From Amoebophrya sp. A120 (taxonomy: Eukaryota > Protista > Dinoflagellata), in the NCBI GenBank assembly GCA_905178155.1, contig CAJINV010000015.1, positions 395,309 to 459,308 of the forward strand: a stretch of DNA of 64,000 nt, read 5' to 3'. This document shows, one piece after another, positions 2,507 to 61,600 of this stretch. Within the stretch, counting starts at the first letter, position 1. Every line of letters begins with the position of its first letter. Made by a program: the position numbers and the translations under genes. Under the pieces are notes generated by a model. That model was not told where the DNA came from. It saw nothing but the letters and a program-made list of their open reading frames with translations, and ran no database searches.

Positions 2507-5500
2507 TTACCGACACTGGTACTCCTTATCCGGGACGCCCGGCCAGGAGACCCCTGAAACCTCCTCGTAACAATTATCGAATGCAAATATATGTCTGGGT
2601 CGTCTGGAAAAGCAGCGCGAGATCTCTCATGCAGCTTTTGCCCGACCCGGATCTTCGTCGGGCATGGCAGACCTAGCATCACAGATTGATAATGATTTCG
2701 AGCAGGTCTCCAAATGTTGCCTAATGCGCCCCTCTTTCGGTATACAGAACAAATGCGCCCCTCTTGCTGGCCATGCATGGCAGATTTTGTCATGATCTAG
2801 AATAGTTCGCATGACAAATTGCGATGCTCCTTTCAGACCCAGACTACATATTTGCCATGCATAGCAGTTGGCTGCGAACCACTTCCGCTCCTTCCAGTCC
2901 TCCATGTAGTTCCGCCCGTTGAGGTGGCGGGGGATTCCGGGCGGCAGCGGCTCGGTGCCACCGTGGCTCCATCCGCCGCCCGCGCGAGTGCCCGACCAGA
3001 CCTTTTTTACCACGGCGAGCTTATCGATCTCTGGGTCATTCTATCAAATGTAAAAATGTCTGGGTCTGGAAGAGTGCAAGTTTGTCATGCTTGTCTGGCA
3101 TGACTCTGAAATCTGTCATGCACATTACTGAAGAGCCCCACTTTTCTGTCATGCAGAAACGTATTTTGTCATGCAGAATAGGCAACACCTAGAAGCTCAG
3201 AAACTTGTCATGCTGAGCCAGCAATTGTCGCCTCCTCATGATATGCCACACAGCATCACAAGTTTCCAGACCCAGACATTTTTACATTTGATACATTCCC
3301 CGGAAGGGAATAGGCGATTTCGTGGTTGGGAAGCCAGTGGTTTAGTCCGTTGAAGACCAGAAACGCTGCGTCGCCCGGGCCCCCCTGGAGCTGTGAACAC
3401 TCCCACTTTCCGAAAACATCGCCTTTTTTCCGCCGCGCTTGTCGTTCGAAAATCCACTCCGCAGAGTCGATATCCTGTGCAAAAGTATCGTACTCGTAGT
3501 AATTGCATTTATGCATTACCAATTTCTTTCTCAAGGCAAATCAGCATTACAAATTTAATTTGTAGTGCTGGGCTAATTTGTATTTGTAATGCAATTTATA
3601 TATACTAGTACGATGCTTTTGCAGTTCATAGTCGAGGAGACCAGCGAGGTTTGAAGACGTCGAATTGCTGCTCGGAGGTCGTGCACTAGTCTGTGCACGG
3701 TTTGAAAGATCAGAACCCTGCTGACGCTGTGTACTAGAGGAAGTCTGTGTCTGCCCCCCGGCGCTTCGAAACAACGTCCTTCGCGTAGTACTTCCGGCCA
3801 GTGGTTGGTGCCGCGTGAGGGTGGCCTGCTGCAATACCTGTGGCATTTTTGTCACCTTCGCGGTTCTTGGGTCTGCGCGAAGTAAGGAGATGTAGAGGCC
3901 TATCGGCCCCGTGGTATCCCACACGGTGTTTCCGTAGGCGTGCAATTCCACGCGACGGAATATGTGGTAGATCATGTCCCCGAGGAGTAAGTTCAAAGGC
4001 TTCGCCGCGATGAAAGCGTTCATCAAGCCTTGTAATGAGGAGTCTTGATTCGGCCACTTGGGCAACTGCTTGATAGCCGGAAACGATTCGAAAAAATAAG
4101 GGTCTTTGACCCCAAACGAAAACGTGAAGTCCTGGCAGGCGAAGATGACTCCAATGTCGTCCTTGTTTTGCATTTTTTCCTCCGCAACGACCGTGCCCGT
4201 GACCGGGTCTCTCGTCTCTTTTCTTGGGGACCGGAACTTTTCCGTCCCGGAAAACGCCATCTCCAACAGCTTGTCCCAGCCGACGAGCGGGGCGAGCTTC
4301 CAGTCCATGTATACCCCCCCTTCCCGGTACAGGACTAGCAAGCGGAACAAATCGGATTTCATGGTGTAGATATCGAACGCATCGAATGCCCAGAGCATCT
4401 CCTTTTTGTAATGCTCCTGCAGGTACTCTCTGGCCGCATTCAGGTTGAAGAACTTCACTTCAAACTCCTTTCCCGGTCCCGCGTTCAACTTGGCCCACTG
4501 CGCAAACCCTTGTGTTTTCTCCGGATCCCGCCAGTTCTGATACCGCAGAAACTCGTCCAAAGTCACATCCTTTTCGTCAAAAAACGCTGTGAGAATCAGA
4601 GTTCGCGGAATTTTCGTCTGGACAGGAGGTGCGGGAGGTGGTGGTGTAGTTCCACTTCCAGGTGGAGCTGCAGATGGAGCAACACCAATATTTTTTTTGT
4701 AGAAATTCCTTTCCACGTCATCAATCGAGGCTTGGGTCAAAAAGCCGTGGTATTTCTCGTGCATCATCCCCACTGGATCCTTAACGTTTTCTAAGTCCTC
4801 GGTTGGCCACACCCCCGGGCCATCTTTGTAGTCGATTTTCTCGTGGCGGACGCGGTGTTTCTGCAGGTTCTGTCGTGGAGAGCCGCCCAGCAGGTTCTGT
4901 CGTGGAGAGCCGCCCTGCAGGTTCTGTCGTGGAGAGCCGCCACCGCCATCGTCGCCACCGCTATCGCCACCACCGCCATCTTCGGGACCACCGCCATCAC
5001 CACCACCGCCATCTTCAGGACCACCGCCATCACCGCCACCGCCACCACCGTCATCGCCACCACCGTCATCGCCACCACCGCCACCGCCACCACCGCCCCC
5101 GCCGTTAAATGGCCACCCCCATTCTCGATTCGAAACGCATTCTCCTTTTCTCCTCCATCTCGTGTACCAAGATTCACTCCAACCGTCGAACCAGGGAACG
5201 AAAATCAAAACGCAAGCACCGCCTCCTGCGAGGACGAGAAATAGGAGGAGAAGGATGAGCACGACGCAGTTTTTTGTGCAGGAGCACTGGCAACAGCCCC
5301 CGCGGGACGAGGGGGTTGTTTCATCAACATGCTCCATCTCCTGTTCCTGATCTGCTGCACCTCCAGCATCTTCAACGTGTCCCACCGCGTTCGACGTCGC
5401 ATTAGTATCCACTAGGACAACTTCATCTCCCGCACTCAGCAGTAGAGCCGCATTCTCGTTCCGGGCGGCCGCAGGGGGGTAGTACGTGGAGATCGAGTTT

Positions 5501-5562
5501 TCAACATCTCCTGCGGGAGCCTCCATTCTGGGTCGTGGATCATCTCCACGACGGGGCACCAT
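2507..5562 (-). CDS. Type II membrane glycosyltransferase, GT32/DXD sugar-binding (OCH1-like) family; 3 introner introns
   Basis: TM helix, Gly/Asp stem, then KIPR..., KSDLFRLLVLYREGGVYMD, NAFIAA and TTGP motifs. Frame restored by removing 3471-3630, 3042-3293 and 2575-2863, each plus 5 nt. Start and 3' end are approximate. Confidence 0.85.
2575..2863. mobile_element. Introner family A (TIR TATCAAATGYAAAWRTGTCTGGGTCTGGAA)
   Basis: TIRs; diverged DR acaat/gcagt. Confidence 0.8.
3042..3293. mobile_element. Introner family A
   Basis: TIRs; DR cattc. Confidence 0.92.
3471..3630. mobile_element. Introner family B (TIR TAT....TGCAAAAGTATCGTACT.GTA)
   Basis: TIRs; DR gtcga. Confidence 0.92.
4862..5100 (-). 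repeat. Coding 27-nt tandem repeat x3 (GGSPRQNLx) plus Gly/Asp codon repeats
   Basis: ggttctgtcgtggagagccgcc x3; only one unit in the paralogue. Confidence 0.85.
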
Positions 5563-40652: not shown

Positions 40653-43276
40653 TTATTTCGGCGGGTTTTGCAAAAAGCTTCTGGTTCCATTCGAAGAGGC
40701 AGTAGAAGAGGAACTGCTACTGCTCCCTCCCGTGGTAGATATCAAAGAAAACAAGTCCGTCACGATCACTCACGTCACGATCACTCATGCGCATTCTTGC
40801 ATATACAAAATTGTTTGTCATACGTAAAAATGCATCACAGCCAAACTTCATTAGGGATTTCCCTAGTGTTTCTGCAATACAGGGAAAGTTTGTGATGCTG
40901 AGAAAATTTGTAATGCAAAACCTGCAAGTGAGTGACTGTGACAAACTTTTTTCTCTCCATAGTAGAGGTTCCGCCAACACTGTTCACCACAACAACCTGC
41001 TGATTTTCAAGAGCATCCACCTGGTGCTCTGCTGTCCCCGCCAACATAATAATTCTTGCACGTAGATCCTGCACAAATTTGTGGGCAAGTTGTTTGTAAT
41101 TCTTTCTACTGTCGTCGTGGCCCGTGCTGTCTCGGAGGTTCATCCGCTTGGTATAATTTCCTGTCCCGGCTGCATCGTCTCGGCCGTGTTGAGAAAGATG
41201 AAGGCGCAGAACCGGAGTTGTCCTGGCTGATGCAGTAGGATGAACTGAAGGGTTTGCGGCTGTAGCACGACGCCGAGTTCTGTCGACAAAACAAGCCTGA
41301 TGCTCTTGATGCTCAGAAGTATTACAAGAGTGAAGATCGCCTTCCTCCACCTCGTCTACTTCATCTTCACTCCCGCAAGAAGGTGTACCAATATCAGACA
41401 CAGCGGAGTCCGTCTCGTGATCTCCGACTTCATTAGTTGCAGTACCAGTCGCGTGGTTGTTGGCCCAGGTCCCCGTCGCGGCCAGCACAGAAGGTGGGAG
41501 AATTTTCCTTGCCCCACCACCAACTCGCACCCGCCCCGCCCCGCCATCCCGATCGGGGCCACCTCCGGGTCCGTATGAACTGCAAAAGTATCCTATCGTA
41601 CTAGTACAAATTGCATTACAAATTTGATCAGCATGAGAAACGGAATTTGTCATGCTGTTTTACTTTGAAAAGAAGATTTGTCATGCATATACTGCAATTA
41701 GTACGACTACGATACTTTTGCACAGGATAGTCCGTCCGGGCCATCAAACTGCGTGCTCGAAACGCCAAAACACGTCATGCCCTCGGGCGGGTCCGCACGA
41801 CTGCCGTCGTCGAAGTCGTGCAGAGGTAGAGGTCCTGGCTCACTTCTCAGCTCCTCCCGTTCGCGATACACCGGCACCGCGTGGTAAATTTCTCGTCGGG
41901 GTGGGAGGAAATCTTCATCGTCTTCGCCGCCACCAGCCGCCACGGAATTGCGACGCATCCTCTCGTCCTCAGCCTCCCGCTGCAACCTCCGTTGTTCGCG
42001 TTCCTTTTCCTCGATCTTTCTTTTCTCCTCTTCGATCCCGTCCTGGAATATGAACTGCAAAAGTTAGTATCGTACCCGTAAAAACTCCTCAGCATGAGAA
42101 ATTAAATTTGTAATGCGGATTTACCTCAACAAAAAGATTTGTAATGCATGATTGCAATACGAGTACGACACTTTTGCACAGGATATGGAAACTTTTGTAG
42201 CAATGTTTGTTCGCCAGCTATGGCGTTCTCACATGTTACATCCTCAACTGTTACACGATTTGTCATGCAAAGTTGCAATCAGAATCGGCACGATCAAGCT
42301 GCTTCGCATGACAAATTCCCGACGAGCCCAACAGGCTGAGAATCTTTGCCAAATCTGTCATGCAAGAAGCGCAAGGTCCTCTATTTCGCTGTTGCAGTTC
42401 TTGCATCACAAATCCATGTTGTAACAGTTGAGGATGTAACAGTTGAGAACGCCATACCAGCGCAAACCTGAAGCGGTGCTTGCTGCTGCACAGATCGCGC
42501 AGGGACGTGGTCCGCCCTTGCAAGATTCTCGCAGCGGCGGAGACCGTGGGGGGGTCGTCGTTTTGCCACCAAGGCTGAAACTGTTTCTTGTCCTTGTTCT
42601 GTTGTTTGTGTTCCCACGACAGTAAATCGTTTACTTCCTGCACCCGCTCCTCAATTGTCTTCGTGCTTGTTTGACGGACGTCGCCGAGTCTGGAGCTGAG
42701 GAAGGGCATAATGTTATCAGTGAAGATGTTGTCCGGGAGTGTGGGAAGGAGCGCCTGGTCAACATCGACATCGTGTAGGTCATCTAGTCCATCTGTTGTA
42801 GCTGCATTCCCTGGAGCTCCACCAGAGGGAGCTGCACCGCCAGCAGTGTTAGTTGCGCTACTCGCACCACCGGAAAGATTTTGTTCTCCTGCGCAACTAC
42901 AATTATTATCGGAGCTCGAAGTTGTACTAGTTGTAACAAATTTCCGCAAGCGGCACCGCCGTTCCTCGCTCTTCTGCGTTCGGTCGGGAAGGCGCAGGGA
43001 CGTGTCGGAATAGACTTTGCCATTGTTATAAACCGTATTCGACTGGTTCAGGTTCTTCTGTAGGTTGTGGGATGTTGAAGAACCAATCGTACGCACGGCG
43101 AGGGCCGCTCCCTGCAGCAGCGAGGAGGTAGAGAGTCCGAGCGGGACTACAAACGAGGACTTTATGTAGAGGTGCAGCAACACGTACACGGTTTTGGCAG
43201 CTATCACGGTTGCCACACTACCGCGACGTTGGCCTCCGAGGGAAAAGGGGGTGCTCATCATGCTTCTTCTAGGCAT
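40653..43276 (-). CDS. Hypothetical protein (weak F-box-like segment LPDNIFTDNIMPFL); 4 introner introns
   Basis: ORFs 42263-43276, 41707-42060 and 40835-41653 join in frame after element removal; stop at 40653. Confidence 0.6.
40740..40961. mobile_element. Introner, TIR TAT..A.AGAAAA.AAGT..GTCAC
   Basis: Imperfect TIRs; DR gtaga. Confidence 0.8.
41574..41729. mobile_element. Introner family B
   Basis: TIRs; DR gtccg. Confidence 0.9.
42049..42185. mobile_element. Introner family B
   Basis: TIRs; DR tggaa. Confidence 0.9.
42219..42456. mobile_element. Introner family D
   Basis: TIRs; DR ccagc. Confidence 0.9.
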
Positions 43277-44199: not shown

Positions 44200-44727
44200 G
44201 AAGGCCTTACTTTAGAAGCAGAAATTCAATGTCTCTCGTGGTGGTTGTAAAGCAGATTTGTTCTTCTGCACGGAGGACACATTTCGTCGAGACGCCATTC
44301 CTCGATCTTGAGAACTTGCACTGCAAGTGAGTTCGATGGTATAGAAAAGTAAGTATGCCGACGTACACCATAGGTACATACACACAAAGTCGTCGTCACA
44401 TTCTCGTGTCGTAGCAAAAGAAATTAGATGAAAAAGGGTATAGACCACTACAGTCCAGTACTCGTCAGCAAAAGTATCGTTAGAAAATGGAGTTGTAGAA
44501 GTTGAGAAGCAAGTAGTAGATTAATATTGCTTGATACAACAAGTCGTACTCGTAGTCGTAGACTTGTTTACAGTTTGCATTTACAGGTAGAATTAGTAGT
44601 ACGTACTTTTATTTTAGTTGACATTTGTTTTTTTATTTGATTTCCGGAGCACAAAGTGCTGGGCGTTCACGTTCATGGTCGATTGCCTCTTCCTGCGCAT
44701 CAACAGAGCCGAAAATTATAAACCCGC

Positions 44728-47700
44728 CTACGCCCAAACCGACCTCCCCTCGCGGTCACCCGGCTTGAAGGATATCGCACGAAATAAAACTCTGGTCTTT
44801 CGTCTTCACTGTGACAATTGCTTTCTTTTGGTATTTCATGACGTCGCACATGACAAGCCTGCTCTTGCGCATAAAACCAAAAATCTGTCATGCGTGCAGT
44901 TTGAATAGCGGAAAAAGACAACAGGCAGAGGGACGAATAAATCCTGCTGTGCAGCTCGTGCTTTATTTATTCCAGCATGCAAGACAAACTACACACCATA
45001 TCTCGGCTTGCATCTGCAACTGCCTCATCTTCAACACACGTGCACAGTGAACAAGGAGCAGACGTTCTTTTTTCCTGCGATACAAGAGAAACCCATATCA
45101 AATGCAAAAGTGTCTGGGTCTGGAAGGTTGCGAGATTTGTCATGCTTGTCTGGCATGACCAAAAAGTTTGTGATGCGTGTCCAAGAAGAGACCCTTTTGC
45201 CTTACATGCAAAAACGAAGCTGGTAATGCGAAAAACGCAACACAAAGAGGCGCAGATATTTCTCATGCTTGACTGTGCATTACAGAGCATTCACTATTCC
45301 CAACGCAGCACTACAAGTTTCCAGACCCCGACATTCTTACATTTGATAACCCACGGCGTTATCCCGGAGCCCGCGGTTCCAGCCACCCATGCGGACGCGC
45401 ATACCCTGATGTAGTTAATTTCGCGGTTCCTACGCATGATAGCGAATCCTCGTCATAGACACAATGCTCACACAAAATGAAGCTGGAAGCCGTTTTCTCA
45501 AATTACTGTATTATTCAAAAAGTTTATTTCTTGTTTTAATAATAAAATACGTCCTGCTGCTTGCCTTGTCCTTTACCCTTGCCCTTTCCTCCCTTTCCCT
45601 TGCCCTTAAAGCCCTTGCTGTTTGCCGTGACGATTCCCATACCGCTATCCTGTGTAAAAACGTCCCCACCCCAGAGTCGTCATTCAATTCTGCATGCTGA
45701 AGATGTTTCTCATGCGGAGCCCCATGAGAAGGATTTTCTAATCGTGTTTCGGAATTTGTCATGCTCCAATCAGCACGATGTGCTAGATGCTAGTGAACTG
45801 GCTAAACAGGATTACACTCCGAGACCAAACTTGTCATGCGCAACAGCCAAGCCTTGTGGATTTGTCTAGCAGATTTTCCATCTTGACTCTGGGGTGGGAC
45901 GTTTTTCCACAGGATAACCGCCCTTCTGACGGGGGGCGTTCGCGTATCGTGTGCGATTAAAGTGTCGGACGTCTTCGCTGTAGATGTCACGGAAGCCGCC
46001 CTCGCCTTTGTTCTGCCCTCGGTTGTTGCCATAACCTGTCAACGATTTGTGATGCGGGAAACGCGTTGTCTCGTGCGTACTTACTTTAGCATGCGGAACT
46101 ACATTCATAGTAAGTAGACGATTTCTATGTCGTCCAACGCAGGACAGATCCAGATCCAGCATGACAGATTGAATGCTTCAGTTTCAATAACTTCTTGGTG
46201 AATTTGTCATGCAATTTGCAGTACTAGTACTAGTTACGTACCTTGTCCTCCCTGTCCGCCCTCCATATTTTTCTGGTAATGCCCAGTCTTGTATCACGAT
46301 GGACAACTTCCCCTAGATCTGGCTTCCAATTTTTTCTTGTCATGCGAAATTACAATTACAGCACTAGCCTTTGCTTTCAAGGCCTGCAGTACAAGCTGCA
46401 GTACCACTTCAAACAAGACAAGGAGTGCTACAGTCTGTTCCTAGAGAAAAAAATTTCGTCATTATTCAAAAACTACGATTGAATTTGTGCTGCTGTGTCG
46501 CTTCGCATCAGATCTGAATCAAGCGGGATCGTCGAGAAGGAGTTGTCCTCTGTCATAACTTGTAGTCGACCGCCCGCTCGTGCTGGTCCAGCCCGTAACT
46601 GCACTTGTCTGCCAGGGTCAACGCCAGCCGCTGAAAATTGGTTTGCGAGTCCTCGGGTCGGACGATGAGGATGGAACTGGTCTTGTCCCAGGCAAAGGGT
46701 ACTTCCTGGTCGTTTATGCTTTGCAAAAAGATCATCGTACTAGTACAAAATTGCATGACAAATTTTGCCAAGAAGGAAAGTGGAATTTGTAATGCTGTTT
46801 TGCCCTAGCAAAATAAATATTTGCCATGCATATTTGCAATTAGTACGAGTACGATACTTTTGCACAGGATACCGTTGATCATGCGGCTGCAAATGCTGTG
46901 GATCTTCTCCTTCTATGAACTGCAAAAGTATCGCACTCGTATAAATGCATTACAAATTTCCTTAGCATGAGAGATAAAATTTGTAATGCTGATTTACCTT
47001 AAAAGACAGATTTGTGATGCAAGACTTGCATTTATACGAATGCGATACTTTTGCAGAGGATACCTTCGGTAGTTCGAACATTTCCGTCAACTTATCGCAC
47101 GGAAAAATCCCCCCTCTCTTTATCGAAAATGCACACCTGAGAAAATTTGTGATGCTTACTTATGGCCGCAAATTGTGTCTGTCTTGCAAGAAAGCAACGG
47201 CAAAGGCTCTGCCCCATTATGCAGGCGATTTGTAATGCTACTCGGCCTAGTACAGTGTAGACGCTCCTCATGCTTAAGTGCTTAGGCCACAACCTCTCTA
47301 CATTGGCATGATATGGGCCTGCAGTCCCCTAGTGCAAGACAAATCTGATTTGTGTACGCAAATCCAGCATCGGAAATTTCGGTTTGATGTGGGGACGAGG
47401 GGGGATTTTTCATTTTAATACAACTGCTTCAGGTCCAACGACTCGTAGCTGCTGGAATGCTTTAAACAGTAGCACCGGATGGCCTGCTCCTTCACCAATT
47501 GTTCCAGCAACTTCATGTCGATCAAGTCCGGCAGAAACTGCACCTTTGCCAGGTGCTGGTGCACGGCCGACTTCCAGTCCCCACGCATGACCGCCAGGGC
47601 CGTATGAAAGTGCACAACTCCTCCCCCCCTCATTTATGAAGCAAGAACGGCAATACAACCGTCAGCAAGAATGCTGTTTTTGCATGACGAATTTGCACAA

Positions 47701-50700
47701 TAGTGTAGTACTGTTCCGGAGTAGTTTGTCATGCAAACAGTGCCAAGGAACACACAGCCTGGATTTGGTGTTTTGCATGACAAATGAGGGTCGTGAGGGG
47801 GAATTGTGCACTTTCATAGGCCGCGTGCAGGATGTATTCTCGGGTCGTTTCCGGTGGGGTTTGGAACACATGCTTCTCCATCTGGTCCAAGTGCTATGAG
47901 AGTGCTCAACTCCTCCTCCCCCTCATTTGAAGGGCATGGATGAGTAGCATTACAAGCAGCTGCAGAAATGTGCCTTCCACATGACAAATCTCTTCTGCTT
48001 CTGCACACGGATTGTAGTACTGTTTCAGGTTCTGGTTCCAAAATTTGTCATGCACGCAGTGCTGAAAGGCAAGATGTGGATTTCTTTTCTTGCATGCCAA
48101 ATCATGTAAGTATCTATGAGGGGGGCGGTTGTAGTGCACTCTCATAAATGCTTTCTCAAGGCTCGGGAGATCAGCCGCCGGTGGCCGGGGTTGATATGAA
48201 ATGCAAAAGCATCGCACTCGTAGTAATTGCTGTCATGCATTACAAATCTTTTTGACAAGCGAAATCCGCATTACAAATTTTATTTCTCATGCTGAGGAAA
48301 TTTGTTACGAGTACGATACTACTTTTGCAATGCATAGTTGAGCTGCTGCAACAGCATGTTCGGCACCTCCAGCAAAAGTGCGGTCACCAAATGCGCAGCG
48401 TCCAGGTGGTCCAGCGGAATGTGCATGTGGTAGGGTAACTGCCTCCGTCTCTCCGTCTTTTCCTGCTCCGGGTTCCGTTCGTTAAAGCGCTGGAACGCGA
48501 CGCCCTGTGCCAGCAGCTCTTTGGACTTGTTGTAGGTGCACAGCTCCATGAGGTAGTGGTGCGCCTCGGGAATCAGGCCCATCCGGAAGGCACACAGACC
48601 TGGTTGACGTGGGAGTCGGAGTTTGTAGTCGCAATATTGTAATATCGACATGCTCGTGACCACACGTCGCACCCAAGCTTTATATATTCCATCTTGCAGT
48701 AGACTACATGTTCTTACGGAACTAGATACCGAGCTAAATCGCCCGAGTAAATCCAACATTGGCCGCCAGCTGCACTTCAGATTATTTTCAACGGGATCAA
48801 ATTCAAAGAGACACACCTTCCATTTTGGACCCCTGTTGGATTAGCTGGCGCATGCGGCCAAAGCGGAAAGCACAATCAAAGCGATTTTGCAAAATTGGCC
48901 AGCGTCCAGCCGTGATGAAATGCGTGCAAAAAATGAAAAATCACTATTTTCATGGCTGAGGACCGGTGGGTACTTAGTGGGCACAGGCGGCTGAGACGAA
49001 AAGAAATTTTAGGCCAATTTTGAAAAAATGGCGAGCGTCCAACATTATAAATTGCCCGAGAAAAATGGCAAGTCACTGCTTCCACGGCTGAGAACCGGCG
49101 GGTAGCGGGCGCAGGTAGCTTGAGCACGACAAAGAAATAAAAGCGATTTTGGATAAATGGCCAGCATTGCAAGGAATAAACGAAAAGAGATAAAGGGAAG
49201 GACGGGAAAACGAAAAATAACGCTTGCTGTGGCTGAGGACGGATTCGAATTCGTGACCGAGGACTTCTACATGAGAAACTTTTACGCAATCCCCAACAAG
49301 ATACATTAGAAGAACCCCCTCACAACTTCAACTATCTTTGGAGTTCTCGTCGTTCTTCAAAGTCTCATAGATACTTACACTGCAAGGTGTCGCACTCGTA
49401 TATATTTTATGCATTACAAATTTCCTCAGCATGAGAAATAAAATTTGTAATGCGGATTTACCTTAAGAGAAAGAGTTGTAATGCATGATTGCAATACCAA
49501 TACCTGTCTGCGCGAATGCGCGGTTGTAAAGAATCTGGGTGTGGGTTTCCACTTCCAACGAGCGCTCGTACATGGTCATGTAGTGCAACGTGTCCCGCGC
49601 AGCCCGAAACTGGTTGTGCAGGGCTTTGTGGTAGGCCCGGCAGAGTTCCGCACGTAAAACAAACACCTTCTCCGTGATCTGCCCCTCGCAGCCGGTCTCG
49701 ATAATGTCGCACAGCGTGTCGATGAGGTCGAAGGATTCGCCCGGCTCGGAAAATCCCCAGGATCCGAGCACGGAAGGTTCTGATAAAGTTTTTTGAATTT
49801 GTTGGCGGGATCTTGAACTTGTGATCCTCTCATGTTGGATGTTGTCTGCAGCTGCTCAAGGTCACTTGTTCCCTTACAAATTGTAGATAATTCTACCTCG
49901 TCCTACTAGTAGAACAAGGTGCAACGTACAGAGCGTTGTTTTTACGCGACGGCTTTTGCATGAAGATATAGCGGAAAAAAGATGAAAAGTTCAACTTGTG
50001 CGAATACTTTCAAACACGTCCATTCCCAACTCGGACTTCATGAAGTCGATGCAGATTTTGTTGTCGGTATGGAGAGAGAAAAGCTCATGCTCGAGTCGCA
50101 GCCAGTCAGTCTGACTATCGCAGGTTTTCTTGAATGCGAGATTTTCGTGGTAGCCTACACAGGTCTTTCTGGTATGGCAGTAACATCGCACAGAAATTTG
50201 ACTGCGATGCTTTGTTATGAGTGACACAATGGTTTTTGGTATATGCTGCAGCAACATTGCCGATGAGTGATCGCGCAGAGCGTTTTCTCCTTTGATACTC
50301 CGAATCCTGCTTGTAGTAAATGTGCTCCAACAATCGCGCCGCCGTTTTGCTCAGGTCCACGCCCTGCTCTTGCGATTTCATCTCGCCCTCGTGCTCCACC
50401 ATGTATTCCGTCAGGTCCTTCAGGAACAAAATCTGCTTGCAGGACGCGACTAAGTAGTCCTGCATTTCCTTGGTCGAAAACTGCAACGCCTTGAACAGCT
50501 CATCATCCAAGCGGAACACAGACAGGAGGAAGGTGCGCCAGAGTGTGTTCTTCGTGAACGTGTCATCCTGATCGTCGTCAGCTGTCGTTTATGTTGTATT
50601 GGGAATTACGCATGACAGATCTGGTATGATTATGTTGTATTGGGAATTACGCATGACAGATCTGGTATGCTTACGCATTTGCGCATCACAAAAAATTCTA

Positions 50701-53700
50701 TACCTTCCACCCCGGCGTCTTTGCCCTTTTCCTCATCGGTTTGTTTATGCAATGTAAATTTCCTGTACATGTACAAAATGCATGACAAATTTCGCTACCT
50801 TGCAGAGTCCAACTTGTCATGCTGGACTAGGATTGAAGGTAAGTTTTTTCATGCAGAGACTGCATTTGTACGTGCACACGAAATTTACTGTGGATATTGT
50901 TCCCAGCCCTTGAACGCGTCAAACATCTCTCGCAACAGGCCCATTGCGTTTTCCCACCGGTTCAGCATCAAGTTTTCGAACCACGCGCCGGAGTAGCTGT
51001 CAAACTCGAAAATGACCTTCTGCCCGAGCAAGAACAACTGCGCGGCGGCCCCGTGCTTGTAGGTGGTAACGACGTTGAGGTAGAAGTCGAGTTTTTTCAG
51101 GTACGTTTGCCGGTCCAAGCCCTTCCGACCGCGGACCTGCACCAAGTCCAGGATCTTCTTCAGCAAATCGACCGTTTTGATTTCATATCGAATGCAAATA
51201 TGCCTGGGTAAAGAAGGATGCAACTTGTCATGCTAAATCTGAATCATGTAAGAATCTGCGTTGCATGATTGCCAAAAGTTGTCCACTTTTGACCTAATCG
51301 AGAGGCAGTTTCTCATGCAAAACAGGCACGAAAGAACTCTCACAGATGAATCTGTCATCGTCATGCTATGTCCTACATACCAGACCTCATGAGTCATGGA
51401 AAACCTGCATGACAAACCTGGCACTCTTCCAGACCCAGACACATTTGCATTTGGTATTTCATGGATCTTCCCATCCGGATCTTCCGACTTCCGGATCGCG
51501 TCGTCCGCATCCTTCATCTTGCCCTCCACCTGTTTCTATGAATTGCAAAAATGTCTGGGTCTGGAAAACTTGTCATGGTAAATCTGAAGCATGCAAAAAT
51601 CTGTGTTGCATGAGTGCCAAAAGCTGCCCACTTTTGACCAAGTTGGAACGAAGTTTCTGATGCAGAAGAGGCATGGCAGAGACCACCTCGCAGAGTCTGT
51701 CATGCTAAGTCCCGCATTCCAGACCTCATGGGTCATGGAAAATCTGCATGACAGGTCTACACTCTTCCAGACCCAGACATTTTTGCACTTGGTAGTTTCT
51801 TGCCGTGCCCCGCGTCGGTCTGCATCTTTTTCTTCGCTGCGCGAGCGGCCGCCAGGGCGGCCACGCGTTCCCGCTGCTCCTTTTCGCGGCGCTCCGCCTC
51901 GTAGTCAGCCTCGGTTTTCAACCAGCGCCGGCGGGGGGTATGGGGGAGAAAGATTTGATGTAGATTCTTAATTTGATGTCTACATGGAACACTGCAAGCA
52001 TAGGATTTTCAATTGGATGATGTCATGGAAGTACGGCTGCACTTAACTTCTATCTTGTACGACGTCCACTATATCTTTGTGAAGAAGCTCAAGCTGGTCC
52101 TTGCGTAGGTCTATGCCGCATCACAGATCTCATGCGTGGTGATGCAATCTGCGTATGCCAAATTTTTCACTACAAAAAAAAATTCACAACCCATAGCGGC
52201 GCATGCGGATCATTTCTTCGTCCATGTCGGAGTATTGAGAGGAAAAATCCCCCCTCCCCATATTGAACAGGCATGTTTCCAAAAGTTTGTGATGCGGATT
52301 TGAGGTCACAAATCACATCTGTCTTGCAAGAAGACAAGGACAGAAGCTTCCGCCCCATTACGGAAGCGCTTTGTCATGCTGTTGGGCCTAAAGGGGGTCC
52401 GTTTTCCATGCTGAACTGCTACCCCCATACGCCCCTCCCTAGCCTGGGGATCTGGCTGCGATGCCTTACTGCAAGACAAGTCCGATTTGTGTACCCAAAT
52501 CCTGCATCACAAATTTCCGTTTTGATATGGGGAGGGGGGATTTTTCATTTTGATACGGAGTCTTCGGAAGATTCGGACGAGTCCGTGTAGGCGGAGGAAG
52601 AATCTGTGATGCAGAAAGTGCATTTGTATCTATTATTTTCAATATTTTCAGGAATTTGTGTTGCCACAGTGTACACAGAAGTCATTCTTTGTGATGCAGA
52701 AATTGCACTAGTTCTGGTTGCAATGTCATATTACCGTCGCTATCCGAGTCCGAGTCGCTGTCGGATTCTGAGTCGCTGTCGTCAGATATGTATCGTATGC
52801 AAATATGTCTGGGTCCGGAAACTTGTGATGCTAAAATGTGGATGATGGAAACAGGAGTTGAGAATGCAACCTAGCATGACAACTTTCCAGCGCGCTTTCT
52901 CATAGGCAATCCGCATGAGAAGCTGCGTGCTTGCATGTTCAAAAGAGGCTGCGGCTTTTGTTGGTTATGCAATACAGATTTCCTAGGTATGGAAAGCTAG
53001 CATTACAAGTTCCACCCTTCCAGACCCAGACATTTTTGCACAGGATAATATGAGAGTGCGCAAGAACTCCCGCACTTCTGCTTCTCATTTGATGATGAAT
53101 GCCATGCAAAGTAGTAGTGTCAAACATTACAGGCGCCACGGCGCCGCACTGCTCGCGTGTGAGACGAAAATAAATTTTGTACGATTTTCGCAAATTGGCC
53201 AGCGCTCCGTGCTGCATTTTGTGCGAAAAATCCGAAAAATACGCCGTCCCCTGTTGGAGGTGGGGCGGGCGCGGCAGACCACGGCGCCGCACTGCTCGCG
53301 TGTGTGACGAAAATGAATTTTGCATCGATTTCTGCAAATTGGCCAGCGTCCCCTGCAGCATTTTGTGCGAAAAATCCGGAAAATGCGCCCTCCCCTGTTG
53401 GAGGTGGGGCGCGGCAGACCACGGCGCCACACTGCTCGCGTGCGAGACGAAAATTAATTTTGCATCGATTTTTGCAAATTGCGCAGCGTCTGCTGCTGCA
53501 TTTTGTGCGAAAAATCCAAAAAATGCGCCGTCTCCTGTTGGAGGTGGGGCGCGGCAGACCGCGGCGCCGCAGCCGCACTGCCCGCGTGTGAGACGAAAAC
53601 TAATTTTGAATCGATAGCGGCAAATTGGGCAGCATCTGCATCAGCACTTTGTGCGGAAAATCCGGAAAATGCACCTATTCCTGTTGGAGGCGGGGCGGGC

Positions 53701-55556
53701 GCGGCTGCCGCGCCCTACAGTGTGAACAGCGTCCTCGTGAGCAAGTTGTCATGCACGTGCTGCATTTCATCTGGGAGTAGCTAGAGCTAGTACTCTTTGT
53801 TGGGTTGCAGCTGTAGTAGAAGTAATTTAGATTTCCTTCAAATCACTTTGGAGGAGTTCGGTAATATGTGCACTCGGATATCAGATCCCTTGCCAGCGCC
53901 GCCTTTCTTCTCCGAGGTCGGTGACCCGTCGTCGCTGTCAGACGAGGAAGAACCAGAATCGTCGGCTTCTTCTTCGTATGCATTTTTGCAATAGTATCGT
54001 GTTTTTCTTTTTTTGGTAGTAACTGCAATACAAATTTGCGGAGCATGACAAATACAATTTCTCATGGAGAACTGCCTAAGAATAGAGGTTTGTCATGCAC
54101 GATTGCAATTACTACGAGCACGATATTATACTGTTGCAAAGGATACTTCGACCTCCTCCTCGGGCTCGTCTTCATATTCATCGGGGTGAGCCTTTTTTTA
54201 GTGTAATGCGGGGTTGCTGTTGCAGCAGCAGCGAAGATTGTGCAATACAAGTTCACATGTTCTACTTTGTCTTGCACTACAAGCCCGGAAAAATCAAAGA
54301 GCGGCTCTTGTCAACATGCGCGCAAGCTGCACGACAGCAAACGATTCGAGGTCAATGATTTAATTTTTTTTTTCATTTCTCTTTCTCATCATCAATCAAT
54401 ATTACCGCATAGTGTTCCAGTTCCGTTTCAAAATCGACGTTTCCCTTTCTGTATCCTGTGCAAAAGTATCGTACTCGTAGTAATTGTATTCATGCATTAC
54501 AAATTTTTTTCTTAAGGTAAATGAATCCGCATCACAGATTTTATTTCTCATGCTGAGGGAATTTGTGATGCATTTATACGAGTACGATATTACTTTTGCA
54601 ATGCATATTCTGATCTTCGCCCTCAGTGTGTTGAACGCCGTGGCCTTGTTTTTCGAGAACAGTTTCTTCTCCCCGCCGGCATGGGTGTTCTCGACGTGCT
54701 CCGCCAGCGTCGCGATGGCCTTGATGAAAAATTTCGGCGTTTCCTGCGCCGCAGTTTTCTGTCCGGAAACCGACGCGTTGATGGCTTGGGTCTTGATTTT
54801 GTCCAACATCTTGCGCCCGCCCTCGTAATCCTGCAGGAGCGAGGAATAGTCGCTGATTTTCAAGTGGTTCTTCATCGTGCGGATCAGCTCCTGCAGCCCC
54901 GCGTACCTTTTGTCCGCATGACTGCGGTATCAAATGCAAAAGTGTCTGGGTCATCTGGAAGAGAGCAGACATTTGTGATGCAGTTTTTGCCTAGCCCAGC
55001 TCGTCTGGCATGCAAGCCCGAGCATTACAGATTCCGAGCAGGCATCCCCATGCCTAACCCGCGTGAGAAATGCCCGCTTTCTGTGACAGGAAGTGGGGCC
55101 TTTTGCTTTTGCTGGCCATGCATTGCAGATTTTGTCATGATGTAGAATATGCATCACAAATTCGAATCCATCCAGAACCAGACCCAGACATGTTTGCAAT
55201 GCATATGCGGATGACGCGCTTCGTGTTCTTGTCGTCATCGGAATCGGAGTCCGAGTCGAAGATCTTCTGCTTGGCCTTCTGCGCGGCCGTCTTCTGCACG
55301 GTCGGCTTCTCGTCATCGGAAGATGCATATGCATTGCAAGAATGTCGTACACTTACTTACGTAGGTACTAATTGCATTTATGCATGACAAATCCGGTTTC
55401 TCTGGGTAAATCACCATGACAATTTCCGATTGTCATGCTGAGAAAACCTGTAATGCAAAAATCACAGCTGTAGTACGATAGTTTTGCAATGCATAACCGA
55501 CTAGAATCGGAATCCGAGTCCGACGAGGAATTGCCTCCGAAAAATTTCGATGTCAT
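44728..55556 (-). CDS. EIF3C: Eukaryotic translation initiation factor 3 subunit C (NIP1); about 28 introns (about 21 introners and 7 GT-AG)
   Basis: MTSKFFGGNSSSDSD, KRVIRS..DKR, RGRKG.DR, RLDDELFKALQ, QILYNRAFAQTGLCAFRMG, LPYHMHI.L..L...HLV.ALLLEVP, GDWK and a PCI region; C-terminal exons less certain. Confidence 0.95.
44773..45082. mobile_element. Introner, TIR TATCGCA.GAAA.AAAAC
   Basis: Imperfect TIRs; diverged DR aagga/caaga. Confidence 0.7.
45096..45348. mobile_element. Introner family A
   Basis: TIRs; DR accca. Confidence 0.9.
45646..45916. mobile_element. Introner family C
   Basis: TIRs; DR accgc. Confidence 0.9.
46036..46241 (-). other. Canonical GT-AG intron (eIF3c)
   Basis: G|GTACGT...TTGACAG|GT, in frame. 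Confidence 0.75.
46292..46557. mobile_element. Introner, TIR TAT.AC...GGACAACT
   Basis: Imperfect TIRs; DR tcttg/acttg. Confidence 0.75.
46715..46871. mobile_element. Introner family B
   Basis: TIRs; DR tcgtt/ccgtt. Confidence 0.9.
46914..47062. mobile_element. Introner family B
   Basis: TIRs; DR ccttc. Confidence 0.92.
47093..47420. mobile_element. Introner family G
   Basis: TIRs; DR caact. Confidence 0.9.
47603..47818. mobile_element. Introner family H (TIR TATGARAGTGCACAACTCC)
   Basis: TIRs; DR ggccg. Confidence 0.9.
47895..48146. mobile_element. Introner family H
   Basis: TIRs; DR agtgc/aatgc. Confidence 0.9.
48195..48336. mobile_element. Introner family B
   Basis: TIRs; DR gttga. 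Confidence 0.9.
48600..49503 (-). other. Canonical GT-AG intron containing a decayed family-B element and decayed 140-nt repeat units
   Basis: G|GTATTG...CCAG|GT restores AFAQTGLCAFRMG. Confidence 0.85.
49780..49995 (-). other. Probable canonical GT-AG intron (eIF3c)
   Basis: A|GTTGAA...TATCAG|AA, in frame. Confidence 0.6.
50116..50297. mobile_element. Degenerate introner (TATC...GATA)
   Basis: Weak TIR; removing element plus 5 nt keeps the eIF3c frame. Confidence 0.6.
50582..50703 (-). other. Canonical GT-AG intron with an internal tandem duplication of about 42 nt
   Basis: G|GTATAG...GACAG|CT; ttatgttgtattgggaattacgcatgacagatctggtatg x2. Confidence 0.8.
50746..50896. mobile_element. Introner family I (TIR TAT.CA..GTAAATTTC)
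   Basis: TIRs; DR ttgtt. Confidence 0.88.
51186..51456. mobile_element. Introner family A
   Basis: TIRs; DR tttca. Confidence 0.88.
51537..51794. mobile_element. Introner family A
   Basis: TIRs; DR gtttc. Confidence 0.9.
51939..52195. mobile_element. Degenerate introner (TATGGG...CCCATA)
   Basis: 6-nt inverted repeat; removing element plus 5 nt restores the frame to RWLK. Confidence 0.65.
52233..52555. mobile_element. Introner family G
   Basis: TIRs; DR cggag. Confidence 0.92.
52604..52734 (-). other. Canonical GT-AG intron (eIF3c)
   Basis: G|GTAATA...GCATCACAG|AT, in frame. Confidence 0.8.
52791..53047. mobile_element. Introner family A nested in the TIR of the outer element
   Basis: TIRs; DR atatg. 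Confidence 0.9.
53135..53715. repeat. Tandem array of 4 units of about 140-145 nt
   Basis: cc(a/g)cggcgcc at 53136, 53279, 53419 and 53559. Confidence 0.92.
53977..54145. mobile_element. Introner family B (diverged)
   Basis: TIRs; DR cttcg. Confidence 0.85.
54192..54405 (-). other. Canonical GT-AG intron (eIF3c)
   Basis: GCG|GTAATA...AAAAG|GCT, in frame. Confidence 0.75.
54452..54607. mobile_element. Introner family B
   Basis: TIRs; DR ttctg. Confidence 0.92.
54928..55205. mobile_element. Introner family A
   Basis: TIRs; DR tgcgg; restores KRVIRSHADKR. Confidence 0.92.
55328..55495. mobile_element. Introner family B
   Basis: TIRs; DR decayed, but the +5 rule keeps the frame. Confidence 0.82.
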
Positions 55557-56731: not shown

Positions 56732-56875
56732 CACTCCGTTAACCAGACCTATGGGTACCCAGAGGTCGTGTTTATCGCGAGATGTTTTTGGATTTTTGGC
56801 TGCAGACCCAAAAATCCAAAAACAGCTCGCGATAAACAGAACCTCTGGGTACCCCGAGGTCTGGTTAACGGAGTG
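56732..56875. repeat. Near-perfect intergenic palindrome/hairpin of about 144 nt
   Basis: cactccgttaaccagacct..gggtacccagaggt...acctctgggtaccc..aggtctggttaacggagtg. Confidence 0.9.
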
Positions 56876-58660: not shown

Positions 58661-61600
58661 TCAAATTGTCCCTCCTGCAGCTTTCGGCGACGCACTCGGG
58701 ACCGGACTCCGCGCCATAGCCATCTGGCGGACAGGGCTTCCTGCACCACCCGAGGACGACTCCTGCGCTAGCAGCACCGTCGCGTCGCGGAGCTGGGAAT
58801 TGGGCGACGGGTTGTAGCTACCGGCGACAGGAGGGACGTCGATAGGGAGGCCGTTGTTTACACCAGGCGAAACGACCGCCGATTCCGCCTTCGCACTACC
58901 TTTTTTCATCTGCTTTTTATTCACCACAAACGGCAGATCCAGCTCCACCCACACTTCCTTCAGCACCTTCACGAAGTACTCCAAATCTTCATCCGAATGC
59001 AGCGGCCCCGGCGTCACCCGGATCCGCTCCGTGCCCCGCGGCACCGTCGGGTAGTTGATGGGCTGGATGTAAATCTGGTGCTGTTTCAAGAGTAAATCCG
59101 TCAACTGTTTGCACTTAACCGGGTCCCCGATGAACACCGGCACGATGTGGGAGCTGTTTTCCATGTAGGGCAAGTGGTTCTTCTGCAGCAGTTTCGTCAG
59201 ATATTTCACCTGCTTCTGTTGCCCTTTTATGAACTGCAAAAGTATCGCACTCGTATAAATGCATCACAAATTTTCTCAGCATGAGAAATAAAATTTGTAA
59301 TGCAAGTTTACCTTAAAAAGAAGATTTGTAATGCATGATTGCAATACGAGTACGATACTTTTGCACAGGATACCTTTTCGCTCCTTGTTGGACTTTTTCA
59401 AGTGCTGGACGGACGCTAGGGCGCCGGCCGCGACTATCCGAAGCAAAAACGTCCCCGCCCCATAGTCAAGTTGGGAAAATAGCAACACAAATCGCCAAGT
59501 TTTGGGAGCTGCGCATGACAAGTTTTCCTCTGCAGTGTAGTGCTGGTTGGCAAGGGAAGCCGCATGAGAGCGCCATTCTCTCAACCTGTTTGCAGCATTA
59601 CAAATTCCAAAACACGAATGGAAAAGCCTTTCATGGAGCTGCGCATTACAAATGCTCCTGTCATTGCGCATTTGCATGACAACTATAGGGTGGGGATGTT
59701 TTTCCTGAGGATAGCGACCACCGGGGGAACCGCGGTGGTGAAGATGAAAGACGACGCGTAGGAACGGACGCAGTCGATGTAGGCGGAGGAACTGTGTGTA
59801 AAACAAAGAGTCCGGGTACGGGTTTAGTCGTGTCATTTCATTTGGTCATGCTTGCTCATGCATCAACACATAGCATACATTCATAGATCATAGTATCATA
59901 AAGGATTTACAAGAACCTCAAGCCTATGTAATATACCCAGCGATGTATCCGCCGAACGCGCCAAACGCCTTGCCAAGCGTCCCGGTGATGATATCGAGCT
60001 CCAAGCCCTCCCTCTCCGCAATCCCGGCTCCCCGCTCTCCGTACATCCCGACGGCGTGCACCTCATCGCAGAAAGTCAAGCAGTTGTACTTGTTGGCCAG
60101 CTATGCATTGCAAAAGTACTATCGTTGTACTGGTAGAAATTGCAATACAAATTGGCTCAGCATTAGAAATCAAATCTGTAGTGCGGATTTCCCTTAACAC
60201 CTAGATTTGTAATGCATAAACTGCAATTAGTACGAGTGCGATACTTTTGCAATGCATACCAACGCGACAATCTCCGCCATTTTCGCGATCGACCCCGACA
60301 TGGAGTACACGGACTCAAACACGATCATTTTCGGGTATAACGTTCTCAACTGTTACATTCTCAATTGTTACATGAATTTGTGATGCAAGAATGGCAAAAG
60401 TGAAAGGGGGGTCCTGCGCGTCTTGCATGACAGACTTGGCCCCGATTATCAGCCTGCTTGGCCCTCTGCGAATTTGTCATGCGAAGCAGCTTGATGGTGT
60501 CGATTCTGAAGGCAATTTTGCATGACAAATCCATGTAACAGCTGAGAATGTAACAGTTGAGAACGCCATATCGGGTGCTCGAGCGGGTATTGCTTCAACA
60601 ACTTTTCCAAATCCTCCATGTCGTTGTGTTTGAAAATGTGCTTCTTACACTTCGATATCAAGTGCAGAAGTGTCTGGGTCTGGAAACTTGTAATGCTGCA
60701 GTGGGAATAGTGAATGCTCTGTAATGCACAGCCAAGCATGAGAAATATCTGCGCTTCTTTGTGTTGCGTGTTTCGCATGACAAACTGCGTTTTTGCATGA
60801 CAGGCGAAAGGGTCTCTTCTTTGACACGCATCACAAACTTTTTGGCCATGCCAGACAAGCATGACAAATCTCGCAATCTTCCAGACCCAGACATTTTTAC
60901 ATTTGATATTCGACTGCCGCATCCCGTCGATCATACTTGCGTGGTTGTCCGCGTCGGAGAACAGCACCAAATCCGGAATCAGCTTCGCAAACACCTGTAG
61001 CGACGCTTCGTTCGCGACGAAGCCGGAGGAGCAGACCAGCGCTTTCTCCATGTGGTGCAGATCGGCTAACTCTGTTTCCAACTCAACGTGAAAGCTTGTC
61101 GTGCCGGAAATGTTGCGCGTACCCCCCGCGCCCATGCCGGTGGAATCGAGCGCGTCGTGGGCGGCTTTCAACACTTTCGGGTGCTGCCCCATGCCGAGGT
61201 AATCGTTGCTGCAGAAAATTTTCACCACGGAGGGAAAGCCCTGGTTAGTGGCGTTGTTGTTTTCCTTGACTGACTTCTTCTTGCCCAGTTTGGTCGTGGA
61301 AGCTGGGGGGGTTGGAGATGAAGATGAAGAAACAAGTCCTGGGATGTCACGGCAATTCGCCGAACTGCAAGTAGTCGAGCTCGATGACGAAGTGCTCCCG
61401 CCGGCGGTACAAGAGCCCGGATCTCCTGGTCCGACATTGTCCTGCCGAAACACCGCGTTCGGAAACTGCCCGCATTGCCGCTGGAGATTTGCGAAGTGGC
61501 GGTACCGACCCTCCGCGTGGAGTTTGGAAATCGCCGATTGGAACGTTTTCGAATACAGTTGCTCCTTCATCTTGTGCTGCTCCCAGCTGATGTTGTGGTA

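Follow-up and report, generated by a model that had tools for sequence, protein, structure and literature searches.

Described introners and comparable splicing systems

According to the text of Farhat et al. (2021; PMC7789003), the introners of Amoebophrya sp. A120 are RNA-supported introns of about 240 nt, present in 29,850 copies, whose inverted repeats start with TAT followed by about 7 variable nt and then an A run, with boundary direct repeats (DRs) of 3-5 nt and borders that are variable or unknown. The splice sites were described there as varying relative to the hairpin, with the inverted repeats 1-5 nt away; no transposase was found, and the main text makes no mention of RtcB. An integrase-related family was reported by Gozashti (2025), and in the A120 rows of Dataset file 8 (22 of 58 rows), the TSDs assigned automatically range from 2 to 5 or are absent, with mixed splice sites and no single rule.

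Nonconventional introns of Euglena follow the code N3-CDG...CHG-N5-6|R, and circular excised RNA has been reported for them (Nomura et al., 2025, PMC12501133; review PMC11282704). They resemble the A120 elements in lacking GT-AG, in pairing their ends, in placing a terminal triplet at fixed distances from the cuts with the longer spacer on the 3' side, and in their frequent DRs, but have CDG/CHG triplets, spacers of 3 and 5-6 and a purine at the exon start, where the A120 elements have TAT/ATA, spacers of 1 and 4 and no flank preference; the lineage is unrelated, and the A120 elements work alike without the euglenid signature. In SOS splicing, DNA transposons are removed from mRNA on ITR pairing, rarely at GU-AG, by an apparently spliceosome-independent route with the factors AKAP17A, CAAP1 and RTCB (Zhao et al., 2025, PMC12779559, a paper that does not mention Amoebophrya). 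The ITRs of A120 elements are likewise predicted to pair in mRNA, with at least 8 pairs joining the two ends in 63 of 65 elements, whereas SOS splicing cuts imprecisely, with indels left behind, and is indifferent to sequence, in contrast to the single joint per element in contigs and the conserved end triplets found here. Fritillaria borealis also has introns of transposon origin across its genome, most of them without GT/AG borders (Soo et al., 2026, PMC13326754), but its introns keep dinucleotide preferences (AG-AC, AG-AT; PMC11282704) and U1, and are spliceosomal with divergent U2AF. The MITE-type introners of Micromonas, Aureococcus and Polarella likewise are non-autonomous TIR elements that become introns together with target duplications (PMC11282704, PMC12130899) and, unlike the A120 elements, carry or co-opt GT/GC and AG.

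The elements analyzed herein are the already described introner elements of A120, from the Amoebophrya study that the initial annotation had cited: an eIF3c exon was 100% identical to an A120 protein, and the organism, the TAT inverted repeats, the A run about 8-12 nt in, the boundary DRs, the absence from RNA, the non-GT-AG borders and the multi-copy nature are all shared with those of Farhat et al. (2021), who left the borders undefined. In contrast to that description, the DR was always 5 nt, one 1/4 register fitted, both orientations were spliced and an internal motif was present in nearly all elements; these points were not found in the text of PMC7789003, the figures of which may show more. 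In the literature, covered mostly without subscription papers, neither a fixed register nor a link between Amoebophrya and SOS splicing was found.

Introner elements of the window

The window, i.e. the whole stretch of 64,000 nt analyzed, contained 67 TAT...ATA inverted-repeat elements of 137-1094 nt within 2575..60908 (minus strand), in good agreement with the roughly 70 initially counted, and all host genes found lie on the minus strand. A relaxed scan gave 65 candidates, from which 67-418 and 18819-18932 were dropped as weak and devoid of the internal motif, and to which 27388-28180, 51939-52195, 52787-53880 and 55328-55495 were added by hand. Perfect 5-nt DRs around TAT...ATA stretches of 90-450 nt occurred 49 times versus 2.4 expected from the TAT/ATA pair number, while the runner-up among the 64 trinucleotides in the same scan occurred 14 times versus 3.8 expected. 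At a similarity of at least 90 bits, the elements sorted into six multi-copy families (22, 13, 5, 4, 4 and 3 members) and 16 unlinked elements, and at least 10 TIR types were distinguished by eye, consistent with the many types noted earlier. The internal motif YTGTVATGC was common to 66 of the 67. Copies stood in both orientations, 14:8 in family 1 and 3:10 in family 2 within the window, and 60:42 among the 102 strand-called copies outside it, so that the hallmarks of MITEs, namely TIRs, a fixed-length target duplication and copies dispersed in both orientations, were all present. The TIR pattern had no match in viral contigs, and no locus orthologous to the window was found among 160 metagenome loci.

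The 5-nt DR was perfect in 52 of the 67 elements and matched at 4/5, 3/5 and 2/5 positions in nine, five and one, respectively, while perfect DRs of 4 nt or of 6-9 nt were seen in none. In transcript orientation, the ends were TAT/ATA in 64, TAC/ATA in two and TGT/ATA in one, a count partly preset by the end requirement of the scan itself; a scan free of this requirement still gave TAT/ATA in 45 of 54, with three more at one mismatch, and among 130 copies of one family from outside the window, 125 had ATA at the unconstrained far end. The first three bases were T, A and T in 67, 66 and 65 of the 67 elements, and A stood at position 11 in 53 and at position 12 in 59. Removal of each element plus 5 nt restored ORFs of 329-1810 aa and placed 64 of the 67 elements within ATG-ORFs of at least 150 aa.

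Removal from transcripts and the register of the cut

The eIF3c gene (44731..55556, minus strand; 1024 aa) holds 22 elements, forming 21 introns with one nested, and seven GT-AG introns. Its exon was identical to the public A120 protein P0121, which carries PF05470 and PF01399; an exon search matched only P0121 among 105 candidates, which is weak evidence on second copies. RNA contigs from four runs of one sample were compared over 33101-53100 and 46241-52232. As anticipated in the initial annotation, even for decayed DRs, element plus 5 nt was absent at 12 of 12 element junctions of eIF3c, with joints identical in all four runs, one exact joint per element (contigs drop rare forms) and all 12 elements missing from one contig per run. 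Since the same contigs also lacked three GT-AG introns (48600-49503, 49780-50007 and 50582-50703, within 48600..50703, minus strand), they were taken as RNA, the library being unrecorded.

At the perfect-DR elements 46914-47062, 47093-47420, 47603-47818, 48195-48336, 50746-50896, 51186-51456 and 51537-51794 (all minus strand), exactly 5 extra nt were removed. The element 48195-48336 is oriented opposite to its family mates at 46914 and 46715, and opposite-oriented family-2 copies were spliced from this one mRNA. At the nested pair, a 1094-nt element (52787..53880, minus strand) harbors a 140-nt tandem repeat at 53136-53705 (TRF) and, at one end, the element 52791-53047; here a loose end at 52787 resumed at 53887, corresponding to 1094 + 5 nt, and the P0121 map was a further line of evidence. 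The elements at 45096 and 44773 proved to be coding rather than 3' UTR. In a second gene, one RNA contig lacked the elements 40740-40961, 41574-41729, 42049-42185 and 42219-42456 (within 40740..42456, minus strand) plus 5 nt per element, the values for the latter two coming from a combined fit across the 28-nt exon between them. This brought the total to 16 elements. Two raw-read runs gave 106 and 1 aligned reads, on element ends only.

The 5-aminolevulinate synthase gene (58664..62383, minus strand; an 827-aa ORF with homologues named ALAS) lies outside the RNA-compared stretch and carries five elements (59228-59372, 59435-59713, 60102-60258, 60336-60570 and 60656-60908) and a GT-AG intron (59792-59936), all on the minus strand. 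For the 58700-61260 fragment, removal of 5 extra nt at all five elements gave the top score and the fewest gaps against three homologues; +0, +4 and +6 broke the frame, and +2 and +8 added a gap, a small margin. The earlier expectation that removal of element plus 5 nt rebuilds eIF3c and ALAS was borne out in eIF3c and, by this small margin, in ALAS.

These observations indicated that removal very probably happens at the RNA level. Loss of an element together with one repeat copy is also the geometry of precise transposon-type excision, as in a ciliate IES-like or cut-and-paste excision before transcription, for which in-host life stages would leave room. DNA-like contigs, however, ran without gaps through the full length of elements 44773, 46292 and 50068 and into the flanks on either side (these contigs may be the assembly's own source, and their joint table was swamped by repeat cross-matches; rare joined forms may occur). 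At element 47093, a contig at a depth of 3.1, either precursor or DNA, crossed from the exon into the element, next to a joined form at a depth of 75, and a single-nucleus cell would presumably inherit the loss. The IES-like excision that the initial annotation had proposed to look for is accordingly very improbable.

The register was assessed through k, the number of DR bases kept from the upstream copy, which decayed DRs make readable; direct joints cover five of the 15 decayed-DR elements. At 46292..46557, the joint 46287->46559 (271 nt, 4/4 runs) required k≤4, the downstream copy supplying the last DR base. The short-family element 46715..46871 (46710->46873, 162 nt) allowed k of 0-4, 47895..48146 (47888->48146, 257 nt, 2 letters shared) required k≥4, 50068..50297 (50063->50299, 235 nt) allowed 2-4, and 51939..52195 (51933->52196, 262 nt, 1 letter shared) allowed 4-5. 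The sixth junction, at 44773..45082 (all on the minus strand), was indirect: an RNA contig piece ends at 44769 and P0121 needs k≤4, leaving 3-4. With two junctions forcing k≥4 and four forcing k≤4, k=4 was the sole value inside all six intervals, drawn from one gene and one RNA sample. A cut of the form N|TAT...ATA NNNN, 1 nt before TAT and 4 nt after ATA, fitted every one of them, which upheld the fixed offset from the element ends claimed initially, albeit as an asymmetric one; the removed "DR copy" is then a composite of one base of the upstream and four of the downstream copy. The eIF3c model at k=4 equaled P0121 letter for letter, while models at k=0-3 differed at 1-3 residues and that at k=5 at four; P0121 is a predicted protein and may rest on the same RNA as the joints. 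The decayed DRs at 2575, 7291 and 7596 gave no residue change from k=1 to k=5.

One fixed register is therefore probable. A cut varying within the DR, always removing element plus 5 nt as in Farhat et al. (2021), would make the agreement at k=4 a matter of chance; the 1-5 nt spacing in the text of PMC7789003 and the small number of informative junctions speak for it, with likelihoods of 0.013 for independent uniform k and 0.167 for one fixed k, i.e. a modest ratio of about 13 (4.3 from the five direct joints alone). Yet the junctions bound k from both sides, the annotated protein adds k≥3 through P0121 residue 20 at the 2/5-DR element 55328..55495 (minus strand, outside the RNA-compared stretch), and a constant total of 5 would need coupled cuts, for which a fixed register is the simplest account, so that we consider a variable cut unlikely. 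Sliding within the DR may be the source of the variable splice sites of Farhat et al.

The same junctions bear on reverse-transcriptase template switching as a source of false introns. A hairpin with a short direct repeat is a classic substrate for such switching, and all RNA evidence came from contigs with no recorded library. A homology-driven switch, however, would keep the whole downstream repeat (k=0), whereas k must be at least 4 at 47895 and at 51939, where the joints have no more than 2 letters and 1 letter in common, respectively; moreover, all 12 elements were missing from one contig per run, and without splicing the reading frames of eIF3c and ALAS would be broken again and again. 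Such an artifact is the least probable of the explanations considered.

Splice-site dinucleotides, folding and possible chemistry

GT-AG was impossible at every equivalent slide position in 63 of the 67 elements and possible in four, and none of GT-AG, GC-AG, GA-AG and AT-AC fitted in 58, any of the four being possible in nine; the elements thus lack the GT/GC...AG ends of U2-type introns, in line with the initial annotation. At k=4, the 5' dinucleotides were GT in 22, CT in 17, AT in 16 and TT in 12, and all 16 dinucleotides occurred at the 3' end, with AG in 4 of 67. Neither an enrichment of G at +1 (p 0.23) nor a purine bias after the cut was detected, and the 102 strand-called outside copies had G at +1 in 27, AG in nine and both in five. 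The view that the cut is not read from GT/AG dinucleotides was supported by this lack of bias. As a separate observation, intronic +1 was G in three of the five window DRs differing at the last position, too few to weigh.

The predicted folds gave a median of 27 pairs between the ends, and pairing of the terminal TAT/ATA triplets was predicted (p>0.5) for no more than 41 of the 65 elements, with probabilities of at most 0.09 in six elements whose splicing RNA contigs show. In these models, the robust structure is the long TIR helix further in rather than the terminal triplets, which look as if read as sequence or held by protein. The paired TAT/ATA stem suggested earlier was accordingly retained for the TIRs and not for their terminal triplets.

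We tentatively propose, with slightly less than balanced confidence, an RNA-level, hairpin-guided, fixed-register cut-and-ligate removal of A120 introner elements that is likely separate from the spliceosome; the case for non-spliceosomal chemistry as such is evenly poised. Non-autonomous DNA transposons would land in exons regardless of orientation, each time duplicating a 5-bp target, with the shared motif YTGTVATGC as a candidate binding site of the mobilizer. Pairing of the TIRs in the pre-mRNA, in many cases interrupted by an internal loop at positions 4-7, would then draw the two ends close to each other, the intron being N-TAT...ATA-NNNN with any N bases. An endonuclease recognizing the TAT/ATA ends might cut, and an RTCB-like ligase might join the exons by analogy with SOS splicing. 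Because 1 + 4 equals the duplication length, every insertion would restore the original mRNA, and since both orientations are spliced, a strand-specific branch point or pyrimidine tract would not be needed. It is possible, though held with less assurance, that this amounts to a second, precise and non-spliceosomal splicing machinery, which would read nothing but a hairpin ending in TAT/ATA and serve tens of thousands of introns, an exact form of SOS splicing convergent with the 3+5 code of Euglena.

For unexplained splicing, the one-line code N|TAT...ATA NNNN, indifferent to flanks and orientation, would provide a testable rule. If true, it would mean revised border annotations for some 30,000 introns, account for the harmless transposon load of essential genes such as eIF3c with its 22 copies, and render any new insertion of these transposons perfectly silent; if the chemistry is non-spliceosomal, a scarless, sequence-independent RNA excision activity would be on offer.

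The same elements and register might instead be handled by a remodelled major spliceosome, in which the hairpin would replace U1/U2AF in intron definition, U6 would accept N-U-A-U as a relaxed form of the GUAU donor, and the distance from the terminal AUA would fix the 3' site, a reading that we regard as a strong rival, only slightly less likely than cut-and-ligate removal. At k=4, +2 was U in 67 of 67 elements and +3 was A in 66; of 89 spliceosomal proteins, 83 were found in A120, as were U2, U4, U5 and U6, while U1 was not detected (PMC7789003), a point that also favors the cut-and-ligate reading; in Fritillaria, a changed spliceosome handles introns of which 95% are non-GT/AG (PMC13326754); and SOS splicing is imprecise, unlike the joints here. 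On the other hand, there was no base preference at +1, -2 and -1, while splicing is said to need a non-Watson-Crick pair of the first and last intron bases (PMC13326754); both orientations work; the would-be donor lies at the foot of a long predicted helix; and, TAT being the transposon end anyway, the resemblance to GUAU may be coincidental. Of the non-standard system put forward in the initial annotation, the absence of GT/AG reading stood, but the system itself is not proven, given that N-U-A-U resembles the GUAU donors of this genome. All nine GT-AG introns analyzed here begin with GTA, five of them with GTAT, and the internal motif of the elements occurs 11 times inside GT-AG introns, which suggests that elements and GT-AG introns interconvert. 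One of these introns, at 50582-50703, starts with G-TAT and holds this motif.

Inventory and host genes of the elements

Scanning the window for TAT...ATA inserts flanked by perfect 5-nt direct repeats (DRs) yielded 49 matches against 2.4 expected. A relaxed scan gave 65 candidates, and with two removed and four added by hand, 67 elements were counted, in good agreement with the "about 70" of the initial annotation (2575-2863, 3042-3293, 3471-3630, 7291-7559, 7596-7757, 8674-8952, 9008-9242, 9325-9473, 9563-9875, 10158-10419, 10468-10719, 11510-11764, 12128-12274, 15978-16377, 16970-17304, 17814-18025, 18100-18405, 19831-20094, 20309-20580, 21400-21651, 21879-22141, 22247-22474, 26479-26772, 26846-27097, 27388-28180, 32163-32307, 32389-32650, 33521-33782, 33835-34092, 34148-34457, 35568-35829, 35896-36136, 36697-36986, 38089-38375, 38431-38758, 38960-39221, 40740-40961, 41574-41729, 42049-42185, 42219-42456, 44773-45082, 45096-45348, 45646-45916, 46292-46557, 46715-46871, 46914-47062, 47093-47420, 47603-47818, 47895-48146, 48195-48336, 50068-50297, 50746-50896, 51186-51456, 51537-51794, 51939-52195, 52233-52555, 52787-53880, 52791-53047, 53977-54145, 54452-54607, 54928-55205, 55328-55495, 59228-59372, 59435-59713, 60102-60258, 60336-60570 and 60656-60908). 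The DRs were of 5 nt only, being perfect in 52/67 elements and in none at 4 or 6-9 nt, and they lacked a consensus, as had been noted before. All three codon phases were represented (29/17/21).

This class of elements is already known, also in the A120 genome, since Farhat et al. (2021; PMC7789003) describe non-canonical introns of the same genome; according to their text, these make up more than 60% of introns, have inverted repeats beginning with TAT and direct repeats of 3-5 nt, and include 29,850 repeated copies, with splice sites whose position towards the hairpin is termed "variable" and whose borders are termed "unknown". In the literature searched, nothing was found on a uniform 5-nt duplication, nor on the cut register and the orientation independence described below, though figures or further papers could contain part of this.

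The exon at 50903-51184 (minus strand) was 100% identical to P0121, the sole database protein matched, a 1024-aa protein of Amoebophrya sp. A120 with Pfam domains PF05470 and PF01399, whose eIF3c gene (44731..55556, minus strand) holds 22 elements. A homologue search for the gene at 58664-62383 returned ALAS. Excision of all elements and nine GT-AG introns gave eleven ORFs of 329-1810 aa, which enclosed 64/67 elements and made up 57% of the remaining sequence; with ORFs defined after removal, the binomial p for at most 2/66 elements outside was ~1e-13. The elements avoid non-coding DNA, owing either to exon-targeted insertion or to survival of their ends only where splicing selects for them. 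Two elements (19831-20094 and 20309-20580) lay outside ORFs of at least 150 aa, their host probably being a short or unmodelled gene.

A metagenome-collection scan with the terminal inverted repeat (TIR) of one family identified 160 loci, in which 186 pattern matches resolved into 130 distinct full elements, 37 matches having no mate within the locus. The far end was ATA in 125/130, and a perfect 5-nt DR was present in 105/130. One assembly of that collection (contigs JACKZZ01...; L001-L160) held an estimated ~440 stretches with the TIR of family 1, the largest in the window, and its best copies were 91-98% identical to window elements.

By eye, the outermost 7 nt occurred in few variants common to otherwise unrelated families (e.g. 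35568, 33835, 38089 and 52791), and the two ends of one element often carried different variants, which suggests exchange of ends between elements. Element 27388-28180, of the short family, contains an unrelated insertion that brings its length to 793 nt, its perfect DR and both ends being intact. Palindromes or MITE-like inverted repeats outside the TAT/5-nt DR pattern were seen in intergenic DNA (31576-31858 and 56732-56875), and gene 5' regions with upstream DNA appeared duplicated by eye, with similar ORFs (1-1400 and 4690-6240; 14560-15500 and 17500-18900).

Removal from RNA

Across 46241-52232, contigs taken as RNA from four runs of one sample showed the same 15 joints in 4/4 runs, corresponding to three GT-AG introns and 12 elements. 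Exactly 5 extra bases were missing at 12/12 element joints, bearing out the earlier proposal that the element leaves with one DR copy, and in a second gene four further elements were likewise missing, with 5 extra bases, from one contig. Element 52791-53047 is nested in the last bases of 52787-53880, its DR overlapping the outer end; both were gone in RNA, and a loose contig end at 52787 was consistent with loss of the 1094-nt outer element, with its inner one, and 5 further bases. The outer element contains a 140-nt tandem repeat, with look-alikes by eye near 43790-44160 and 48860-49200.

Removal at the RNA level is well supported. Excision from DNA fits poorly, as contigs that probably derive from DNA, and may be those from which the assembly was built, run unbroken through three of the removed elements, and a low-depth contig reads from exon into element. 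In a separate run, in which the window exons were not covered, about 100 raw RNA reads carried family-1 element ends with foreign flanks; they were placed on 33521-33783 and 51220-51615, and represent a related element retained in another strain's RNA.

Cut position and terminal signals

Since a joint slides across a perfect DR, borders appear variable. Where the DR copies differ, the base present in RNA tells which copy supplied each position, and thus how many bases (k) were kept from the upstream copy. The joints in contigs taken as RNA allowed k<=4 at 46292, 0-4 at 46715, 2-4 at 50068, 4-6 at 47895 and 4-5 at 51939, and a contig piece end indirectly gave 3-4 at 44773, so that k=4 was the sole value compatible with all six. 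The likelihood ratio of fixed against independent uniform k was modest, at ~13, or 4.3 with the five direct joints only. When the 22 eIF3c elements were cut at k=4, the product was P0121 letter for letter, and any other k gave mismatches; this agreement requires k>=3 at 55328, but P0121 may itself have been annotated with the help of that RNA. The intron, with modest support, is one base, TAT...ATA and four bases in fixed register; the fixed offset initially proposed was therefore retained, but it is unequal, 1 nt 5' and 4 nt 3'. Reverse-transcriptase template switching, which makes false introns, predicts k=0 and needs homology, which 51939 and 47895 lack.

At k=4, the first dinucleotide was GT in 22 elements, CT in 17, AT in 16 and TT in 12, while all 16 dinucleotides occurred at the end, AG in 4/67. 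Among outside copies, the strand could be called by codon usage in 102 of 122 (52/54 confident calls correct in a self-check), and these 102 had G at +1 in 27, AG in 9 and both in 5. The suggestion that splice-site dinucleotides do not set the junction was thereby upheld in both samples, positions +1, -2 and -1 being indifferent. Both orientations relative to transcription occurred (14:8 in family 1, 3:10 in family 2, 60:42 outside), and 48195 and the oppositely oriented 46914 and 46715 are all spliced out of one mRNA.

Folding predictions joined the ends by at least 8 pairs in 63/65 elements (median 27), but the terminal triplets themselves were predicted to pair at p>0.5 in just 41/65, which weakens the paired TAT/ATA stem of the initial annotation. 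Pairing was possible at positions 4-7 in 35-48/67 elements and at positions 8-13 in 56-63/67. From this profile and the two-way orientation, the signal is read as probably symmetric, consisting of conserved end triplets with the register held by an inner helix.

Candidate removal systems and related introns

We tentatively favour, at close to an even chance, a predicted cut-and-ligate system as the catalyst, because the +1, -2 and -1 bases and the orientation do not matter; the TAT/ATA hairpin ends would be recognised, the RNA cut and the exons ligated. A remodelled spliceosome, predicted to remove the same introns, is only somewhat less likely: the 1/4 register opens every intron with N-U-A-U, which resembles the GTA(T) that serves as donor in each of the nine GT-AG introns of the window, the A120 spliceosome is reported as near complete apart from an undetected U1 snRNA (PMC7789003), and Fritillaria is described as a precedent for retooling (PMC13326754), whereas the unbiased terminal bases and removal in either orientation speak against it. 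The predicted cut-and-ligate system would share its inverted-repeat trigger with SOS splicing, which is ITR-triggered and uses RTCB, but SOS cuts are imprecise (PMC12779559).

The genetically defined Euglena intron code, N3-CDG...CHG-N5-6 (PMC12501133), has the same form as the A120 N-TAT...ATA-NNNN, and the Euglena machinery is, beside SOS splicing, another candidate model for the predicted A120 system. The A120 offsets sum to 1+4=5, the DR length, and the Euglena spacers to 3+5=8. The hAT transposons, many of which start with CAG, make 8-nt target duplications. Because both sums equal a duplication length, a general rule to this effect may, by analogy, exist.

The motif YTGTVATGC, on either strand, occurred 209 times in the window, 194 in elements (66/67 carrying it), 11 in GT-AG introns and 4 elsewhere, and as a guess it is a putative transposase binding site; no description was found in the passages covered of Farhat et al. 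(2021; PMC7789003) or in the wider literature searched, where figures or further papers may hold one. GT-AG introns with this motif or element remnants (50582-50703, 46036-46241, 48600-49503, 52604-52734 and 33168-33304) may be elements turned ordinary introns, and that at 50582 opens with G-TAT and thus shares the register of the elements.
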